Below are positions 14,175-49,826 of a stretch of DNA of 51,064 nt, one piece after another. The position numbers and the translations under genes are program-made. The number at the start of each line of letters is the position of its first letter. Position 1 is the first letter of the stretch. Under the pieces are notes generated by a model, which saw nothing but the letters and a program-made list of their open reading frames with translations, was not told the origin of the DNA and searched no databases. This DNA comes from a virus (Duplodnaviria; Heunggongvirae; Uroviricota; Caudoviricetes). The DNA lies in IMG/VR virus record IMGVR_UViG_2534681675_000014; one strand, given 5' to 3'.

Positions 14175-14462
14175 TAACACTTCCTTAATTTTCCCTTAAC
14201 AATTTAGGGTGCTAAACTTTTTTGCGCAGTTTACACAAAAAAATAGTGCGTACGCAAAAACTATCTAACATGATGAGCTTTAACCGGGAAACTTGTATAT
14301 GTTGTGAGCATAAAGTTGGCTGAGAAATCTAAAACGGGTAGAATGACTGCGGGTGCTTGAGGCTATCTGCCTCGGGCATGAACACCAAAGGCAGATAGAG
14401 AAAAGCCCCAGTTAACATTACGCGTCCTGCAAGACGCTTAACATTAATCTGAGGCCAATTTC

Positions 14463-14675
14463 ATGCTTTGCACAAGTAGGTTAGCCTCTTACGTGCCGAA
14501 AGGCAAGGAGAAGCAGGCTATGAAGCAGCAAAAGGCGATGTTAATCGCCATGATCGTCATCTGTTTAACCGTCATAGTGACGGCACTGGTAACGAGGAAA
14601 GACCTCTGCGAGGTGCGAATCCGAACCGGCCAGACGGAGGTCGCTGTCTTCGTAGACTACGAATCTAGAGAGTAA
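14463..14675 (+). CDS. Mok-like in-frame leader reading frame of the hok locus (70 aa)
   Basis: In-frame N-terminal extension of the Hok-like toxin, as in mok/hok loci. Confidence 0.5.
   Translation: MLCTSRLASYVPKGKEKQAMKQQKAMLIAMIVICLTVIVTALVTRKDLCEVRIRTGQTEVAVFVDYESRE
14520..14675 (+). CDS. hok: Hok/Gef-family type I toxin (51 aa)
   Basis: MKQQKAMLIAMIVICLTVIVTALVTRKDLCEVRIRTGQTEVAVF recalled as Hok family; AAGGAG SD; stable hairpin downstream (14681..14707). Confidence 0.8.
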   Translation: MKQQKAMLIAMIVICLTVIVTALVTRKDLCEVRIRTGQTEVAVFVDYESRE

Positions 14676-16034: not shown

Positions 16035-16573
16035 TTTACCCAACGAATACAGGAAAAAGCGGAGAACACCTTCGTCTCGCCACGCTGGAAAGTGTCTGGA
16101 TTCAGGGCAAACTGCGTATGTGGGGGCGCTGGTCGTATATTGGCGGTGGCAGGTCAGGAAATATGTTCAATCAGTTGTTGGCATCCCAAAAATTGACGAA
16201 AACAGCCATCAATGAAGCCCTGCGCAGAATGAAAAAAGCGGGAATAGAGAAAGCTGAGCTGGAAGCGTTTTTGAGAGAGATGATCAACGGCAAGCAAAAG
16301 AGCTGGCTGGCGCATTGTACTGATGCAGAGGCGTTATGTATTGATCGAGTCATAAGTGAGGTGCTGGCAGAGCATCCAGGATTGATTTGCATTCTCCGGC
16401 AACGCTATGAAGGGCGGGGGATGACTAAGCGTAAAATGGCTGAATTGCTACATGATGCACACCCAGAGTGGTGTTTTAGCACATGCGAAAAACGGATTGC
16501 TAATTGGTTAGCTGTTGCTGAGTATGTCCTATATATTCCCATGCGTGAATCATTTGCTGAGAAAATGGCTTGA
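16031..16573 (+). CDS. Q-family late-gene antiterminator, paralog 2 (likely the functional late activator)
   Basis: GTG 16031 overlapping upstream stop (GTGA), AGGAGGG SD; WGRW motif and Q-like C-terminus; followed by a strong terminator about 85 bp downstream. Confidence 0.55.
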   Translation: MIYPTNTGKSGEHLRLATLESVWIQGKLRMWGRWSYIGGGRSGNMFNQLLASQKLTKTAINEALRRMKKAGIEKAELEAFLREMINGKQKSWLAHCTDAEALCIDRVISEVLAEHPGLICILRQRYEGRGMTKRKMAELLHDAHPEWCFSTCEKRIANWLAVAEYVLYIPMRESFAEKMA

Positions 16574-16656
16574 TTTCTTACGTATAAACTGCTTCAATTT
16601 CGCTATGCTTCGCAAAGCTGTATCGCGAGGCGAACAATCCCACGGATACAAAAAAA

Positions 16657-16677
16657 CCACCTAAAGGTGGTTTTTTT
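16657..16677 (+). terminator. Rho-independent terminator (tR-prime-like) downstream of Q paralog 2
   Basis: ccacc-taaa-ggtgg stem-loop followed by T7. Confidence 0.6.
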
Positions 16678-16952
16678 GTATCTGTAAGAAATGAGATATT
16701 AGTGTTGATATATTGTTGTTGTTTTGATGCATATTTCTATGCCTAAATAATGTGATGTAGATCACTTATATTATTAATGCTGTATTTTAATCTATTAAGG
16801 ATCTTGAGGTGTTCCCCAGGGCGGGGGTGGCAAGGTATAACTGTTTAGCGGGAGGGAAGCCACAGTGTATTAGTCAGGAGCTGATATACTTCGGGAGGCA
16901 CCCGACGCCTCAGATCATAATAATAATGACCTCTTTAGCTAACCATCTTTTT

Positions 16953-16976
16953 ACCGCCTTGACGGGCGGTTTTTTG
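16953..16976 (+). terminator. Rho-independent terminator
   Basis: accgcc-ttgacg-ggcggt hairpin followed by TTTTT. Confidence 0.5.
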
Positions 16977-17098
16977 TTTATATAGAAAGTATTTGGCAGG
17001 GATTTTAGGCTAAAAATCACCACGTAGTCTTAATTCAGGACTGAGGAGACGTTGATGTTGGTGAGATGATGCAGCACGGCTTCTGGCATAATTTCAGG

Positions 17099-17126
17099 CA
17101 AAAAAAACGGCCCGTGAAAGAGCCGT
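17099..17126 (-). terminator. Minus-strand terminator-like hairpin 1
   Basis: acggc/gccgt stem; A-run on plus strand equals T-run after the hairpin on minus strand. Confidence 0.4.
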
Positions 17127-17256
17127 AAAATCTAATGCATTTCAAAATTCGCCTCCAGAAAAACTCTTATATCTTTAGGTGTCATGATTTGTTTTTCCTT
17201 GACCTTAGTCAATATTACTATGTCATTATTAATGGTTGATTGTTTTTCATCCAGAT

Positions 17257-17278
17257 AAAAAAGCCCTCTTGCGAGGGC
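17257..17278 (-). terminator. Minus-strand terminator-like hairpin 2
   Basis: gccctc-ttgc-gagggc with A6 on plus strand (T6 on minus). Confidence 0.45.
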
Positions 17279-17405
17279 ACTAGTATGAAAATATGTGAAG
17301 CAATATTTATTAGCGTTTATGTAGTGGAGTTTTGGATTTTGTGATTTTTTTATAAGTTTTTTTGTGATGCAGATCTTTTTTTGACATTGTGTCGGTGATA
17401 GTCCG

Positions 17406-17432
17406 AAAAAAAGCGACCCGTTAAAGAGTCGC
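17406..17432 (-). terminator. Minus-strand terminator-like hairpin 3
   Basis: gcgac-ccgttaaaga-gtcgc with A7 on plus strand; loop resembles hairpin 1. Confidence 0.4.
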
Positions 17433-17545
17433 TTGTGAATAAAGGAAGTATATAAGTAACCGCGTACGTTATTAATTCTATTGCTCTATGCCTGTGACGG
17501 ATATTGATTTTGGTCAATTCATCTGTAATGAGTGGTTATTTACGA

Positions 17546-17572
17546 TAAAAAATAGCTCCCCGGAAGAGGAGC
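17546..17572 (-). terminator. Minus-strand terminator-like hairpin 4
   Basis: gctcc/ggagc stem with A-run on plus strand. Confidence 0.35.
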
Positions 17573-17822
17573 CCGTGAAAATTCATGGTGAGAAGAACAA
17601 GGATTTACAAAAGATTCCGACAGACAAAGAATCGTAGGTATTTTATGAGGCGATATTGGTTTTGTGGTGATTTATATCAATATCTTGATGGTTTCTTGAA
17701 TGCTTGATGGCTAATTATAATTATGCATATTAAATGATTATTATTGTTTTCATATAGAAATAAGTAGCATCCTTGATATAGTAACAGCACAACTCGAATT
17801 TTCTTTCACTGGGAGACTATTT

Positions 17823-18080
17823 ATGCACTCACACCATCATCAAATATCTATGAGCCAACTTACCATGAGTTCACCCATTAAAGGTTTTTCACTGTATGTA
17901 GAAAGCGAAGACGTGGCTGTCGCGATAGCTGAACTTGAAAAGGCCTTATCACAGCTCAGGAACGGAGATAAGGCATTCAAAGAAAGTGGTACGCTGGTTG
18001 GTAACGTCAGAGCAAGTTATTGCTATCCTTACCGCCCCCATTGTGTCGCGAAAGGTCTTTATTGGGATGAAGGGGATTAA
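17823..18080 (+). CDS. Hypothetical protein (85 aa)
   Basis: ATG with GGGAGA SD; convergent with the 170-aa gene and overlapping its stop. Confidence 0.4.
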   Translation: MHSHHHQISMSQLTMSSPIKGFSLYVESEDVAVAIAELEKALSQLRNGDKAFKESGTLVGNVRASYCYPYRPHCVAKGLYWDEGD

Positions 18081-18589
18081 GCAAGGACTTGTTCACCGAT
18101 AGTTACTGGTAGCGGACAAATGTATTCCCAGACTGGATCAGGGTTAAAGGTTTTACCTGCCCAGTAAAGTTCCATTCTGTAGGTGAATTCCAGTACTGAT
18201 GTATCATTTCTTAATAATGACATATCTCCGCGATGATAACTATCTGTTTGTATTATGAAGATTTTATCAGATGGTTTCCCGTCTGTAAGTCGAAAATGTT
18301 TAGCCTCCTCCAGGTTACCCCATGCGAAGAGTGACGTATAGCGAGAAGGTTTTTGCGGGTAAACTCCTCTTCGGTAAAACTCTAACCCCCAGTCGATGAA
18401 TTCGTTTTTATTATAAATTTTTGCCGCATTGTTAATAAGGTATCCCTCGCCATGTGGTGCAAGCCCGCACGGAAAAAGTTTGTCTACCAGAGATGACATT
18501 TCGACAGGACTTATATCGGAGAATCGCTTTGGTGTAACAATATCGCCAGTTGAGTATATTCCTCGGCGATCAACCAAAAATAGTTCCAT
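18077..18589 (-). CDS. Hypothetical protein (170 aa), cargo gene in the Q-to-lysis region
   Basis: ATG with GGAGAAA SD; minus strand, opposite to late transcription; AT-rich. Confidence 0.5.
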   Translation of the reverse strand: MELFLVDRRGIYSTGDIVTPKRFSDISPVEMSSLVDKLFPCGLAPHGEGYLINNAAKIYNKNEFIDWGLEFYRRGVYPQKPSRYTSLFAWGNLEEAKHFRLTDGKPSDKIFIIQTDSYHRGDMSLLRNDTSVLEFTYRMELYWAGKTFNPDPVWEYICPLPVTIGEQVLA

Positions 18590-18782
18590 TCATTTTCTCC
18601 ATTGATAGTTGTTACTTTTGGCGATGTAACGATATCAAGTGCGAGGTTATGCCGCCAGATTCTTAATCTGGTACTTCATCAGGCCCTTGCATGTACTAGG
18701 GCTTTTTCATTGTCAGGCTACGGATAACATCTCTGACTTCTTGTTAGTAAATCTGAGAGCCTGGACCCTACTGGATTTGCCC

Positions 18783-19688
18783 CTATATTTCCAGACATCT
18801 GTTATCACTTAACCCATTACAAGCCCGCTGCCGCAGATATTCCCGTGGCGAGCGATAACCCAGCGCACTATGCGGATGCCATTCGTTATAATGCTCGAAC
18901 GCCTCTGCAAGGTTCTTTGCTGCCGTTAACCCGTCTGGTTTGGGCATGATACTGATGTAGTCACGCTTTATCGTTTTCACGAAGCTCTCTGCTATTCCGT
19001 TACTCTCCGGACTCCGCACCGCCGTGTTCTTCGGTTCAAGTCCCAACATCCGGGCGAACTGGCGTGTTTCATTAGCCCGGTAGCATGAACCATTATCCGT
19101 CAGCCACTCCACTGGAGACGACGGAAGATCGTTGCCGAAGCGGCGTTCCACCGCTCCCAGCATGACGTCCTGTACTGTTTCACTGTTGAAGCCGCCAGTA
19201 GTCACCGCCCAGTGCAGTGCCTCACGATCACAGCAGTCCAGCGCGAACGTGACACGCAGTCTCTCTCCGTTATCACAGCAGAACTCGAACCCGTCAGAGC
19301 ACCATCGCTGATTGCTTTCTTTCACGGCCACTCTGCCTGTATGTGCCCGTTTCGATGGCGGTACAGCAGGTTTTCGCTCAAGCAACAGCGCATTCTGGCG
19401 CATGATCCGGTAAACACGTTTGGCATTGATCGCAGGCATACCATCAAGTTCTGCCTGTCTGCGAAGCAGCGCCCATACCCGACGATAACCATACGTGGGC
19501 AGCTCTCCGATAACATGGTGTATACGGAGAAGCACATCCGTATCATCAGTGTGACGACTGCGGCGGCCATCCATCCAGTCATCGGTTCGTCTGAGAATGA
19601 CGTGCAACTGCGCACGCGACACCCGGAGACAACGGCTGACTAAGCTTACTCCCCATCCCCGGGCAATAAGGGCGCGTGCGCTATCCAC
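18783..19688 (-). CDS. insD: IS2 transposase OrfB (InsD)
   Basis: 301 aa, recalled as IS2 InsD. Confidence 0.9.
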
Positions 19689-20011
19689 TTTTTTGCCCGT
19701 CCATATTCAACGGCTTCTTTGAGGAGTTCATTTTCCATCGTTTTCTTGCCGAGCAGGCGCTGGAGTTCTTTAATCTGCTTCATGGCGGCAGCAAGTTCAG
19801 AGGCAGGAACAACCTGTTCTCCGGCGGCGACAGCAGTAAGACTTCCTTCCTGGTATTGCTTACGCCAGAGAAATAACTGGCTGGCTGCTACACCATGTTG
19901 CCGGGCAACGAGGGAGACCGTCATCCCCGGTTCAAAGCTCTGCTGAACAATTGCGATCTTTTCCTGTGTGGTACGCCGTCTGCGTTTCTCCGGCCCTAAG
20001 ACATCAATCAT
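19646..20011 (-). CDS. insC: IS2 OrfA (InsC)
   Basis: 121 aa from [18 protein letters not shown]...; overlaps insD as expected for the InsCD frameshift fusion. Confidence 0.85.
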
Positions 20012-20141
20012 CTGTTCTCCAATGACTAGTCTAAAAACTAGTATTAAGACTATCACTTATTTAAGTGATACTGGTTGTCTGGAGATTCAGGGGGCCAGTC
20101 TACCTACGTTTAGCACCATCCGAATTCTCGGAGGTGAGGCT

Positions 20142-20357
20142 ATGAAATCCATGGACAAGTTAACAACGGGCATTGCCTACGGCACCTCCGCAGGCAGTGC
20201 TGGATACTGGTTTTTACAGTGGCTGGATCAGGTCAGTCCGTCACAGTGGGCTGCAATTGGTGTGCTGGGAAGTCTGGTTCTGGGCTTTTTGACTTATCTG
20301 ACAAATCTGTACTTCAAAATCAGAGAAGACAGAAGAAAGGCTGCGAGAGGAGAGTAA
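20142..20357 (+). CDS. Class II holin (phage 21 S21-type pinholin)
   Basis: 71 aa [30 protein letters not shown]...; dual-start Met1/Met4; GGAGGTGAGG SD. Confidence 0.85.
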
Positions 20358-42032: not shown

Positions 42033-45000
42033 ATGGGTAAAGGCAGCAGTAAGGGACATACCCCGCGTGAAGCGAGGGACAACCTGAAGTCCACGCAGTT
42101 GCTGAGTGTGATCGATGCCATCAGTGAAGGGCCGATTGAAGGTCCGGTGGACGGATTAAAAAGTGTGCTGCTGAACAGTACGCCAGTGCTGGACAGTGAG
42201 GAGAATACCAATATCTCCGGTGTCACGGTGGTTTTCCGGGCAGGTGAGCAGGAGCAGACACCGCCGGAGGGATTTGAATCCTCCGGCTCCGAGACGGTGC
42301 TGGGTACGGAAGTGAAGTACGACACGCCGATTACCCGGACCATCACGTCTGCAAACATCGACCGTCTGCGCTTTACCTTCGGTGTGCAGGCACTGGTGGA
42401 AACCACCTCAAAGGGGGACCGGAATCCGTCGGAAGTCCGCCTGCTGGTTCAGATACAGCGTAACGGTGGCTGGGTGACGGAAAAAGACATCACCATTAAG
42501 GGCAAAACCACCTCGCAGTATCTGGCCTCGGTGGTGGTGGATAACCTGCCGCCGCGCCCGTTTAATATCCGGATGCGCAGGATGACGCCGGACAGCGCCA
42601 CAGACCAGCTGCAGAACAAAACGCTCTGGTCGTCATACACAGAAATCATCGATGTGAAACAGTGCTACCCGAACACGGCACTGGTCGGCGTGCAGGTGGA
42701 CTCGGAGCAGTTCGGCAGCCAGCAGGTGAGCCGTAATTATCATCTTCGCGGGCGCATTCTGCAGGTGCCGTCGAACTATAACCCGCAGACGCGGCAATAC
42801 AGCGGTATCTGGGACGGAACGTTTAAGCCAGCATACAGCAACAACATGGCCTGGTGTCTGTGGGATATGCTGACCCATCCGCGCTACGGCATGGGGAAAC
42901 GTCTTGGTGCAGCAGATGTGGATAAATGGACGCTGTATGTCATCGGCCAGTACTGCGACCAGTTGGTACCGAATGGTTTTGGCGGCACGGAGCCGCGCAT
43001 CACCTGTAATGCCTGGCTGACCACACAGCGTAAGGCGTGGGATGTGCTCAGCGATTTCTGCTCGGCGATGCGCTGTATGCCGGTATGGAACGGGCAGACT
43101 CTGACGTTCGTGCAGGACCGACCGTCGGATAAGGTGTGGACCTATAACCGCAGTAATGTGGTGATGCCGGATGATGGCGCGCCGTTCCGCTACAGCTTCA
43201 GCGCCCTGAAGGACCGCCATAATGCCGTTGAGGTGAACTGGATTGACCCGAACAACGGCTGGGAGACGGCGACAGAGCTTGTTGAAGATACGCAGGCCAT
43301 TGCCCGTTACGGTCGTAATGTCACGAAGATGGATGCCTTTGGCTGTACCAGCCGGGGGCAGGCACACCGCGCCGGGCTGTGGCTGATTAAAACGGAACTG
43401 CTGGAGACGCAGACCGTGGATTTCAGCGTGGGTGCTGAAGGGCTTCGCCATGTACCGGGCGATGTCATTGAAATCTGCGATGATGACTATGCCGGTATCA
43501 GCATCGGCGGGCGCGTGCTGGCGGTAAACAGCCAGACCCGGACGCTGACGCTCGACCGTGAAATCACTCTGCCATCCTCCGGTACCACGCTGATAAGCCT
43601 GGTTGACGGAAGTGGCAATCCGGTCAGCGTGGAGGTTCAGTCCGTCACCGACGGCGTGAAGGTGAAAGTGAGCCGTGTTCCTGACGGCGTTGCTGAATAC
43701 AGCGTGTGGGGGCTGAAGCTGCCGACGCTGCGCCAGCGCCTGTTCCGCTGCGTGAGTATCCGTGAGAACGACGACGGCACGTATGCCATCACCGCCGTGC
43801 AGCATGTACCGGAAAAAGAAGCCATCGTGGATAACGGGGCGCACTTTGACGGCGACCAGAGCGGCACGGTGAATGGTGTCACGCCGCCAGCGGTGCAGCA
43901 CCTGACCGCCGAAGTCACCGCAGACAGCGGGGAATATCAGGTGCTGGCGCGCTGGGACACGCCGAAGGTGGTGAAGGGCGTGAGCTTCCTGCTCCGTCTG
44001 ACCGTAACAGCGGATGACGGCAGTGAGCGGCTGGTCAGCACGGCCCGGACGACGGAAACCACATACCGCTTCAGGCAGCTGGCGCTGGGAAATTACAGGC
44101 TGACAGTCCGGGCGGTAAATGCATGGGGACAGCAGGGCGATCCTGCATCGGTATCGTTCCGGATCGCCGCACCGGCAGCGCCGTCGCGGATTGAGCTGAC
44201 GCCGGGCTATTTTCAGATAACCGCCACGCCGCATCTTGCCGTTTATGACCCGACGGTACAGTTTGAGTTCTGGTTCTCGGAAAAGCGGATTACCGATATC
44301 AGGCAGGTTGAAACCACAGCCCGCTATCTTGGTACGGCGCTGTACTGGATAGCCGCCAGTATCAATATCAAACCGGGCCATGATTATTACTTTTATATCC
44401 GCAGTGTGAACACCGTTGGCAAATCGGCATTCGTGGAGGCCGTCGGTCGGGCGAGCGATGATGCGGAAGGTTACCTGGATTTTTTCAAAGGCAAGATAAC
44501 CGAATCCCATCTCGGCAAGGAGCTGCTGGAAAAAGTCGAGCTGACGGAGGATAACGCCAGCAGACTGGAGGAGTTTTCGAAAGAGTGGAAGGACGCCAAC
44601 GATAAGTGGAATGCCATGTGGGCTGTCAAAATTGAGCAGACCAAAGACGGCAAACATTATGTCGCGGGTATTGGCCTCAGCATGGAGGACACGGAGGAAG
44701 GCAAACTGAGTCAGTTTCTGGTTGCCGCTAACCGTATCGCATTTATTGACCCGGCAAACGGGAATGAAACGCCGATGTTTGTGGCGCAGGGCAATCAGAT
44801 ATTCATGAACGACGTGTTCCTGAAGCGCCTGACGGCCCCCACCATTACCAGTGGTGGCAGTCCTCCGGTATTTTCCCTGACATCAGACGGAAAGCTGACC
44901 GCTAAAAATGCGGATATCAGTGGCAGTGTGAATGCGAACTCAGGAACGCTCAACAATGTCACGATTAACCAGAACTGTACGATTAAGGGCATGCTGGAGG

Positions 45001-49251: not shown

Positions 49252-49826
49252 TGGCATTCAGAATGAGTGAACAACCACGGACCATAAAAATTTATAATCT
49301 GCTGGCCGGAACTAATGAATTTATTGGTGAAGGTGATGCATATATTCCGCCTCATACAGGTCTGCCAGCAAACAGTACCGATATTGCACCGCCAGATATT
49401 CCGGCTGGCTTCGTGGCTGTTTTCAACAGTGATGAGTCATCGTGGCATCTCGTTGAAGATCATCGGGGTAAAACGGTTTATGACGTGGCTTCCGGCGACG
49501 CGTTATTTATTTCTGAACTCGGTCCGTTACCGGAAAATGTTACCTGGTTATCGCCGGAAGGGGAGTTTCAGAAGTGGAACGGCACAGCCTGGGTGAAGGA
49601 TACGGAAGCAGAAAAACTGTTCCGGATCCGGGAGGCGGAAGAAACAAAAAACAACCTGATGCAGGTAGCCAGTGAGCATATTGCGCCGCTTCAGGATGCT
49701 GCAGATCTGGAAATTGCAACGGAGGAAGAAATCTCGTTGCTGGAAGCATGGAAAAAGTATCGGGTATTGCTGAACCGTGTTGATACGTCAACTGCACAGG
49801 ATATTGAATGGCCAGCACTGCCGTAG
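49251..49826 (+). CDS. tfaR: Tail fibre assembly protein (Tfa)
   Basis: 191 aa; start overlaps stf stop (ATAATG); position. Confidence 0.8.

Follow-up and report, generated by a model that had tools for sequence, protein, structure and literature searches.

A non-coding module with four leftward terminators downstream of Q in an Escherichia coli Rac-type prophage: a candidate array of small-RNA genes with FNR-type promoter signals

The subject of this analysis is the interval behind the Q-like antiterminator gene in a 51,064-nt stretch of DNA (Caudoviricetes; IMG/VR record IMGVR_UViG_2534681675_000014), referred to here as the window, which is an Escherichia coli Rac-type lambdoid prophage. 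The reading favoured here, held at about even confidence, is that the whole interval is non-coding and has three parts, the last of which, a module at 17092-17780, would be a self-contained non-coding moron of ~700 nt: three or four leftward small-RNA genes (~65-90 nt) antisense to the leader of the late operon, with class II FNR-type promoters ahead of units D, C and A. The left third, missed in an initial annotation that a model had made from the letters alone, consists of a promoter-proximal block and an RNA gene of the STnc100/PasD type. An array of small-RNA units was among the options offered in that annotation, and it is the one favoured by the comparative evidence.

The most conspicuous element of the module is a series of four hairpins on the minus strand, which the initial annotation had placed about 140 to 160 bp apart. 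Terminator calls were made by a first scan and by a stricter scan of the whole 51-kb window; all four hairpins (Table 1) were recovered, at spacings of 152, 156 and 139 nt, each with 6-9 pairs, five of them G-C, followed by 6-8 T. The stricter scan called eight minus-strand terminators in the whole window, four of which lie within 470 nt here, and no plus-strand terminator inside 16980-17822, so that late transcription can pass the module. Among 2000 dinucleotide shuffles of 16980-17822, 1989 contained no minus-strand terminator, 11 contained one and none contained two or more. A U-rich tract at most 16 nt upstream accompanies each of the four hairpins, compared with UUU in 21% of background 16-nt windows.

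Scanning with the sequence of hairpin 4 led to a single diverged relative, the IMG/VR contig UViG_2713896902_000003 (locus L161). Window positions 16747-17780 align to L161 41-1074 at 71.6% identity, and 17101-17780 align a second time, to L161 1357-2030, at 67.8% identity: the module accompanies the STnc100-like gene there as well, and its 680 nt are present in two tandem copies (L161a and L161b). The three module copies are 68-72% identical overall. At places equivalent to the four of the window, seven minus-strand terminators were found in L161 by the scan and an eighth by eye, and terminator spacing is 139-169 nt in all three copies. The hairpins are retained in place and in pairing; hairpin 4 is kept in both L161a and L161b. 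The stem changes are compensatory: that of hairpin 1 reads ACGGCTC/GGGCCGT, AACGGCTC/GAGCCGTT or AACGGCAC/GTGCCGTT, and the outer pairs of hairpin 2 are G-C or A-T, depending on the copy. Summed over the 12 hairpins of the three copies, the predicted energy is -159 kcal/mol for the minus strand versus -140 for the plus strand. The minus strand owes its greater stability to G-U pairs, which occur only there; in 6 of the 12 these pairs turn into A-C mismatches on the plus strand, at a loss of 2.5-4.7 kcal/mol. The T runs of the module are likewise confined to the minus strand. Together, these comparisons support the view that the four hairpins are predicted intrinsic terminators maintained by selection. 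Should the small-RNA predictions set out below fail, the stretch would still be a clear example of a conserved one-way terminator stack.

The likeness of hairpins 1 and 3 noted in the initial annotation is real (26 nt in common at 85% identity), but the case for the duplicated units proposed there is weak: only these two hairpins and a 14-nt palindrome are shared. The unit bodies have no significant similarity, aligning to one another no better than shuffles do, and no repeat unit was detected beyond the two hairpins and the palindrome. Tandem Repeats Finder reported only an 8-nt low-complexity run and no head-to-tail repeats. A type III toxin-antitoxin (toxI-like) or other tandem-repeat RNA array was ruled out for these reasons, head-to-tail repeats being absent and the unit bodies dissimilar.

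Ahead of three of the four terminators lie conserved boxes of the FNR type. The FNR box consensus, TTGAT-N4-ATCAA (ten scored positions), and the class II rule were taken from a published study (PMC3718329) and from general knowledge. The 51-kb window contains the pattern TTGAY-N4-RTCAA twice; these sites, separated by 305 nt, belong to the module and lie 70-80 nt upstream of hairpins 1 and 3. In L161 the pattern has three sites, all in module copies, compared with 0.03 expected. With C allowed at the last position, the pattern TTGAYNNNNRTCAM has three window sites, in units A, C and D only (five strand matches versus 1.2 expected; five were reached in 1 of 100 shuffles), and five sites in L161, all in module copies and none elsewhere (eight strand matches versus 0.07 expected; reached in none of 200 shuffles). 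Each of these five exact boxes in L161 agrees with the consensus at 9 of the 10 positions. On the minus strand, eight of the nine unit copies have an exact box with a -10-like hexamer 20-23 nt downstream of it, so that the box centre falls at -39.5 to -42.5, the class II position. The geometry was computed for these eight; in the remaining copy, unit A of L161a, a 9/10 box (ATGATCCACATCAA) was read by eye.

The 14-mer of unit D is invariant in all three copies and is the most conserved string of Block 1, the right-hand part of the module. For the box of unit C, the arms are constant, the 4-nt spacer is variable and the gap to the -10 hexamer is 23 nt in every copy; the box of unit A reads TTGACTGAAATCAA in L161b, where it agrees at 9/10. 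Across the copies, the -10 hexamer is TAAAAT or TATCAT in unit D, TAGAAT or TAAAAT in unit C and weaker in unit A, with 5/6 matches in units C and D and 3-4/6 in unit A. The elements of unit C are the same as those of the yfgF promoter, which is described as class II FNR-dependent (PMC3718329); in E. coli that promoter has TTGAT--ATCAA with TAGAAT, and its counterpart in S. Enteritidis has TTGAC--ATCAA. By eye, no conserved -10 hexamer was seen on the plus strand at the matching distance from box C. Two other promoter candidates were dropped: TTCAAG-N18-TATAAA for unit D, which has no -7 T and fits the conserved 14-mer less well than the FNR-box reading does, and TTGACT-17-AATCAT for unit A, which is not conserved.

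These elements could work together in the following manner. In units D, C and A, the box ~41.5 nt upstream of the predicted start and the -10 hexamer would drive leftward transcription, and each RNA would end ~65-90 nt further on, at a strong terminator behind a U-rich tract. A short RNA with a U-rich tract and a strong terminator has the usual build of Hfq-binding small RNAs. Judging from the boxes, the module RNAs would probably be induced anaerobically, via FNR or another protein of the CRP/FNR family. Hairpin 2 may end a fourth RNA, the promoter of which was not identified, or serve as a backup for hairpin 3. The strongest small-RNA candidate is RNA C, for which the predictions agree on one fold across the three copies (z = -2.1 to -4.4); its candidate seed is UACUUCCUUUAUUCAC. 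It is also the best candidate for a trans-acting RNA because its body is conserved, and it may act through its conserved single-stranded 5' part. As for such a single-stranded seed, unit C is both conserved and unstructured, units A and B have bodies that lack conservation, and the body of D is conserved in only two of the three copies. Action in cis is possible as well: the units lie inside the leader that every Q-dependent late (lysis) transcript crosses, so their RNAs would be perfect antisense partners of the late mRNA. Antisense pairing would explain why most bodies drift freely while promoters and terminators persist. The module is autonomous in that it is duplicated in L161 without a cargo gene.

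It has also been considered, as an improbable extension of this scheme, that the module works as a safety lock by which phage lysis responds to oxygen, so that lysis would be coupled to oxygen availability in the gut. In anoxia, FNR would fire the three leftward promoters within the late-operon leader; convergent transcription and the antisense RNAs would suppress leaky or induced expression of holin and endolysin, and the four terminators would hold antisense transcription off Q and the late promoter pR'. If the favoured reading is true, a Rac-like prophage carries a self-contained set of small RNAs that are induced anaerobically and lie antisense within its lysis-operon leader, and thereby offers a direct handle on whether oxygen status feeds into prophage late-gene control or into regulation of the host in the gut. 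Standard annotation overlooks prophage small RNAs, which rewire host regulation; across the 1.2 kb, the Prokaryotic Genome Annotation Pipeline gives no annotation in the four carrier genomes that were inspected.

The direction of the terminators would also suit a one-way insulator, the sole role of which would be to keep leftward polymerases off the STnc100-like gene, pR' and Q, the RNAs being functionless. Such polymerases might come from spurious promoters in AT-rich DNA, from morons on the opposite strand or from the lysis region, and rightward late transcription would be unhindered. Hairpins and T runs are indeed constant while most bodies drift, the module has four minus-strand and zero plus-strand terminators, and a minus-strand cargo gene lies to its right in the window. 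Related Q-to-holin regions carry almost only plus-strand terminators, so that terminator direction matters in this region. An insulator is nevertheless unlikely. L161 retains two full modules, has no minus-strand gene to their right and lacks the cargo genes, whereas E. coli C311 has the cargo pair without the module, and both findings weaken the suggestion of the initial annotation that the terminators insulate Q from the cargo. Moreover, an insulator leaves unexplained the conserved FNR-type boxes with their -10 geometry before three of the four terminators, and the conserved body of unit C.

Among the comparison set of 80 IMG/VR loci with a Q gene 92-99% identical to that of the window, at least ten different arrangements follow the same Q gene, and the Q-to-holin interval is a known mosaic hotspot. 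The module might therefore be thought of as evolutionary debris, that is, as 3' ends (a terminator plus a gene remnant) piled up by moron turnover at the hotspot between Q and S and functionless now. Its rarity and AT-richness fit such an origin, as does its variability: the close copies have 18 variable sites in 843 nt here and 9 in 778 nt of neighbouring coding DNA, about twice as many per site. A 117-codon open frame that lacks a start codon spans hairpins 2 and 3. What makes debris improbable is that no part of the module matches any gene or other DNA in E. coli genomes, phages or plasmids, that the four hairpins keep pairing by compensatory changes at ~70% identity, and that the entire 680-nt unit is duplicated, with all signals retained in both copies. 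A protein search with the conceptual translations, which also speaks against gene remnants, returned a single entry, P0001 (128 aa), from an E. coli copy of the same DNA. P0001 (window 17132-17517, minus strand) is a gene-caller artefact in which frames of a near-identical module copy are fused across terminators 2 and 3.

That the interval lacks an open reading frame (ORF) of 60 aa or more between Q and the next gene, as initially reported, is borne out: the longest in 16574-17822 have 58, 55 and 49 aa. The two lysine-rich minus-strand ORFs quoted there, ORF B (17310-17387, 25 aa) and ORF A (17132-17185, 17 aa), exist as ORFs and raise the prospect that the units encode small proteins or form a set resembling type I toxin-antitoxin systems. 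The ATG of ORF A is preceded at 9 nt by a plausible Shine-Dalgarno sequence, AAGGA, and its stop lies 5 nt before hairpin 1. Small-protein genes are most improbable, and comparison of the copies refutes them. ORF B is frameshifted by three separate homopolymer indels among nine 99%-identical copies, and in its region the window differs from all other copies by one base in a T run. ORF A shows E15K between close E. coli copies, it has no ATG in either L161 copy, and ORF B is absent from both as well. In addition, the predicted start of RNA A lies 3' of the ATG of ORF A, and no hydrophobic peptide was found among the small ORFs. A plus-strand CxxC mini-ORF of L161 was rejected too: it is disrupted in the window, its frame changes after codon 23 between the L161 copies, and L161a and L161b differ there at nine non-synonymous sites and one synonymous site (counted by eye). 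No ORF is thus conserved in the module.

Several observations count against the array of small-RNA genes. There are three diverged copies in all, two of them on one contig, and the module is rare in the collections searched and hence clearly dispensable for the phage. The -10 hexamer of unit A is weak (3/6 in the window), no promoter signal was found for unit B, and -10-like hexamers are common in AT-rich DNA. The right half of the D box is CRP-like (TCAC), so the regulator could be another member of the family. No Rfam family matches the module. Divergence is almost unrestrained in the bodies of units A and B and, in L161b, in that of unit D, an unusual pattern for seed-dependent trans-acting RNAs, and functional elements are not clearly spared among the 99%-identical E. 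coli copies.

As to its distribution, a distant-mode search found the module in 6 of 5426 complete E. coli genomes, all copies being 98.7-99.3% identical, and only four near-identical loci among the 80 with the same Q carry it. Carrier strains include E. coli C8 (NZ_CP010125), HYM1 (NZ_CP141765), KK19-02 (NZ_CM144238) and PCP06235 (NZ_CM129869). No match was found in the phage and plasmid collections, and a degenerate pattern of hairpins 1 and 3 gave only chance terminator matches in 185,579 species representative genomes and the Joint Genome Institute metagenomes. Further IMG/VR scans with conserved 20-23-mers returned nothing beyond the known copies and L161. A pattern for hairpin 2 matched 47 unrelated contigs, so its sequence is that of a generic terminator. 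In L161, a plus-strand terminator, holin and endolysin come immediately after the modules. The segment that separates the two L161 copies (1084-1168) is 84% identical to lambda 44866-44950, part of the late leader between tR' and gene S, so the modules have the appearance of insertions into a late leader of the lambda type.

Within Block 1, a perfect 12-bp palindrome (TAATTATAATTA, 17712-17723) is invariant in all three copies. It yields the TATAAT consensus on both strands, with no -35 element or TG motif found, and may serve as the core of a bidirectional promoter or as a site of protein binding. The module ends on the right with an invariant 16-mer (TATATCAAGGATGCTA, 17765-17780, minus strand) containing CAAGGAUG, which resembles the CsrA binding consensus.

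The left third of the interval differs from the module in composition and kind. The initial description of an AT-rich non-coding 1.1 kb holds for 16980-17822 (GC 30-40%); 16800-16980 (GC ~47%) belongs to a structured RNA gene. This gene, at 16758-16976 on the plus strand, is by its sequence and predicted structure of the STnc100/PasD type, a diverged relative of that lineage. In an Rfam scan, 16775-16979 gave a full-length but sub-threshold match to STnc100 (RF02076; 26 bits, E = 0.0005, cmscan). The gathering score of 47 bits is not reached in the window, in L161 (21.7 bits) or in APEC O1 (17.5 bits). For 16980-17822, the scan returned nothing at gathering score or at E up to 1, and for L161 it gave only chance-level hits. 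The structured core has a fold energy of -50.3 kcal/mol, and an alignment of 15 distinct STnc100-like sequences contains 35 consensus pairs, 10 of them with compensatory changes. The multi-hairpin architecture is the same as in STnc100, and the loop motifs, including an invariant CGGGAGGCACCCG, are conserved. The -10 hexamer of the promoter-like site ahead of it and the letters that follow (ATAATGTGATGTAGATC) are retained in L161 at 40-57.

Relatives of 16806-16975 that are 66-75% identical occur in ~100 E. coli records; the chromosomal ones sit between Q and holin, usually ~220 nt past phage tRNA-Thr and tRNA-Gly genes, and others are found on plasmids. Such RNAs are widespread, and unannotated, 3' of DUF1133-type Q genes (loci L003-L005, L052-L089), and in the commonest arrangement downstream of Q (L016 type, 35 loci) the STnc100-like RNA is truncated or rearranged. 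STnc100 and PasD have been described as one prophage small-RNA lineage adjoining Q and holin genes (10.64898/2026.05.13.724894); the present comparison shows that structured RNAs of this type regularly accompany DUF1133-type Q genes.

The first ~100 nt after Q (16574-16685) are retained in all 80 comparison loci, and the DNA further downstream is mosaic. In the alignment, 16586-16634 is nearly invariant across the 80 relatives. A hairpin just 3' of Q was picked up on both strands by the stricter scan; its place is constant among relatives and its letters vary with compensation. From position and co-inheritance, the block 16570-16685 can be read as the cognate late promoter, the initially transcribed Q-loading region and tR'. 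By its position, the short transcript from it (~70 nt) would correspond to lambda 6S RNA and StxS. With the left third composed of this block and the STnc100/PasD-like RNA gene, both plus-strand terminators reported in the initial annotation are accounted for: one was found at 16953-16970, and the other corresponds to the bidirectional hairpin at 16642-16685. ARAGORN and Rfam found no tRNA or tmRNA in the window, in line with the lack of a tRNA-like T-arm motif noted initially for the interval; tRNA-Thr and tRNA-Gly are, however, present at the site in relatives that have this Q gene.

Several prophage small-RNA genes, PasA-D, STnc100, AgvB/AsxR, Esr41 and StxS, are located at the moron site between Q and the lysis genes (10.64898/2026.05.13.724894). 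The module is like the PasA-D/STnc100 group in its Q-to-holin niche, its intergenic units with their own terminators and its variability among strains (10.64898/2026.05.13.724894), and window 16800-16976 is like STnc100 in architecture and loop motifs. In contrast to that group, 17092-17780 matches none of these families even at E = 1, opposes the late operon, has 3-4 units in series and is far rarer. Four other kinds of known systems invite comparison: (i) FnrS of the E. coli core genome is an FNR-activated, Hfq-dependent small RNA; the module resembles it in combining an intrinsic terminator with an FNR-type box at the class II spacing, and RNA C in its unstructured 5' part followed by the terminator, whereas there is no sequence similarity and the module is prophage-borne with three boxed units in tandem; (ii) lambda oop RNA and paQ antisense RNA are short, leftward, terminator-ended and antisense to rightward transcripts, and can damp lytic functions; the predicted transcripts of the module are likewise short, leftward, ended by intrinsic terminators and antisense to rightward phage transcripts, but they overlap an untranslated late leader with FNR-box-like control signals, whereas oop and paQ overlap coding genes (cII, Q) under the control of LexA or CII; (iii) morons, as described by Hendrix and colleagues, are autonomous promoter-gene-terminator units between phage genes; the module is similarly autonomous, AT-rich compared with its surroundings, equipped with its own signals, located at a moron hotspot and variably present, but has no protein gene; (iv) OmrA/OmrB, PrrF1/PrrF2 and Qrr1-5 are sets of small RNAs under one regulator, and the module also has several units side by side with the same type of regulator site; the paralogues of those sets share conserved seeds, whereas the unit bodies of the module are unrelated to one another.

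Table 1. Features in and around the interval downstream of the Q-like gene (window coordinates; pairwise identities are among the three module copies).
Feature	Position	Strand	Details
Hairpin 1	17107-17126; T run 17099-17106	-	terminator scan; hairpin and tail 59-83% pairwise identical
Hairpin 2	17263-17278	-	terminator scan; hairpin and tail 56-75% pairwise identical
Hairpin 3	17411-17434	-	terminator scan; hairpin and tail 66-81% pairwise identical
Hairpin 4	17554-17573; T run 17547-17553	-	terminator scan; hairpin and tail 86-96% pairwise identical
Unit D FNR-type box TTGATATAAATCAC	17667-17680	-	9/10; -10 TAAAAT 17645->17640; centre -40.5 or -41.5
Unit C FNR-type box TTGACCAAAATCAA	17504-17517	-	9/10; -10 TAGAAT 17480->17475; centre -42.5
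Unit A FNR-type box TTGACTAAGGTCAA	17199-17212	-	8/10; weak -10 AAAGAT 17176->17171
Predicted RNA D	17547-17633	-	~87 nt; ends at hairpin 4 and T run
Predicted RNA C	17404-17468	-	~65 nt; 34-nt unstructured G-poor 5' region, hairpin 3, U tail
Unit B	17257-17403	-	A-rich, G-poor, fast-diverging body (35-60% pairwise identical, many indels); ends at hairpin 2, paired via compensatory changes
Predicted RNA A	17099-17164	-	~66 nt; ends at hairpin 1 and T run
Unit D body			85% identical between window and L161a; 35-41% versus L161b
Unit C body			70-76% pairwise identical
Unit A body			46-54% pairwise identical
Block 1	17665-17780		best-conserved, AT-rich; 91%, 79% and 78% pairwise identical
Putative late promoter pR'	16570-16598	+	-35 TTGATT 16570-16575, 17-nt spacer, -10 TTCAAT 16593-16598; by eye in alignment
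Bidirectional hairpin terminator just 3' of Q, probably tR'	16642-16685	both	inverted repeat, 21-nt arms, 95% complementary
Promoter-like site ahead of STnc100-like RNA	16724-16751	+	TTGATG, 16 nt, AATAAT
Structured core of STnc100/PasD-like RNA	16800-16916	+	closing stem and four hairpins
Intrinsic terminator of STnc100-like RNA	16953-16976	+	
Cargo gene 1	17823-18080	+	85 aa
Cargo gene 2	18077-18589	-	170 aa; member of PHROG 5663, the function of which is not known
Hairpin and T run (GGCCCT...AGGGCTTTTT)	18680-18706	+	between cargo genes and IS/holin
Two IS3-family-like transposase ORFs	18783-19688, 19646-20056	-	between cargo genes and holin
S21-type holin	~20142-20357		right of the IS3-family-like ORFs
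Rfam matches RalA, sok, IS009	1557-1735, 14351-14675, 49594-49792		above gathering score

The window carries RalA, sok and IS009, as is seen from Rfam, and trkG comes after related prophage copies. A hok-like ORF (14463-14675) adjoins the sok match. The gene that ends at 16573 encodes a DUF1133 protein with a weak match to Phage_antitermQ and a strong one to PHROG 753, 'anti-termination protein Q-like'; in a published survey, DUF1133 was classed as Q antiterminator on HHpred evidence (PMC8136144). The two cargo genes, which lie right of the module, are convergent and overlap by 4 nt. Neither protein has a match in Pfam or PADLOC, which gives no hint of the module being part of a defence or toxin system. 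The two cargo genes move together: in C311 the pair follows a DNA methyltransferase gene, and the region is 94% identical to the window from 17801 onward. As the terminator module is absent there, module and cargo genes are independent of each other.

Further downstream, an insertion sequence (IS), represented by the two IS3-family-like ORFs and taken to be IS2, parts the late promoter from the lysis genes in the window strain; the gap from cargo to holin is ~1552 nt in the window versus ~216 nt in the IS-free relatives L001 and L002. The hairpin at 18680-18706 is positionally equivalent to the holin-proximal terminators of L161 (2110-2125) and APEC O1. With it as a further plus-strand terminator, the lysis genes lie behind at least three of these.

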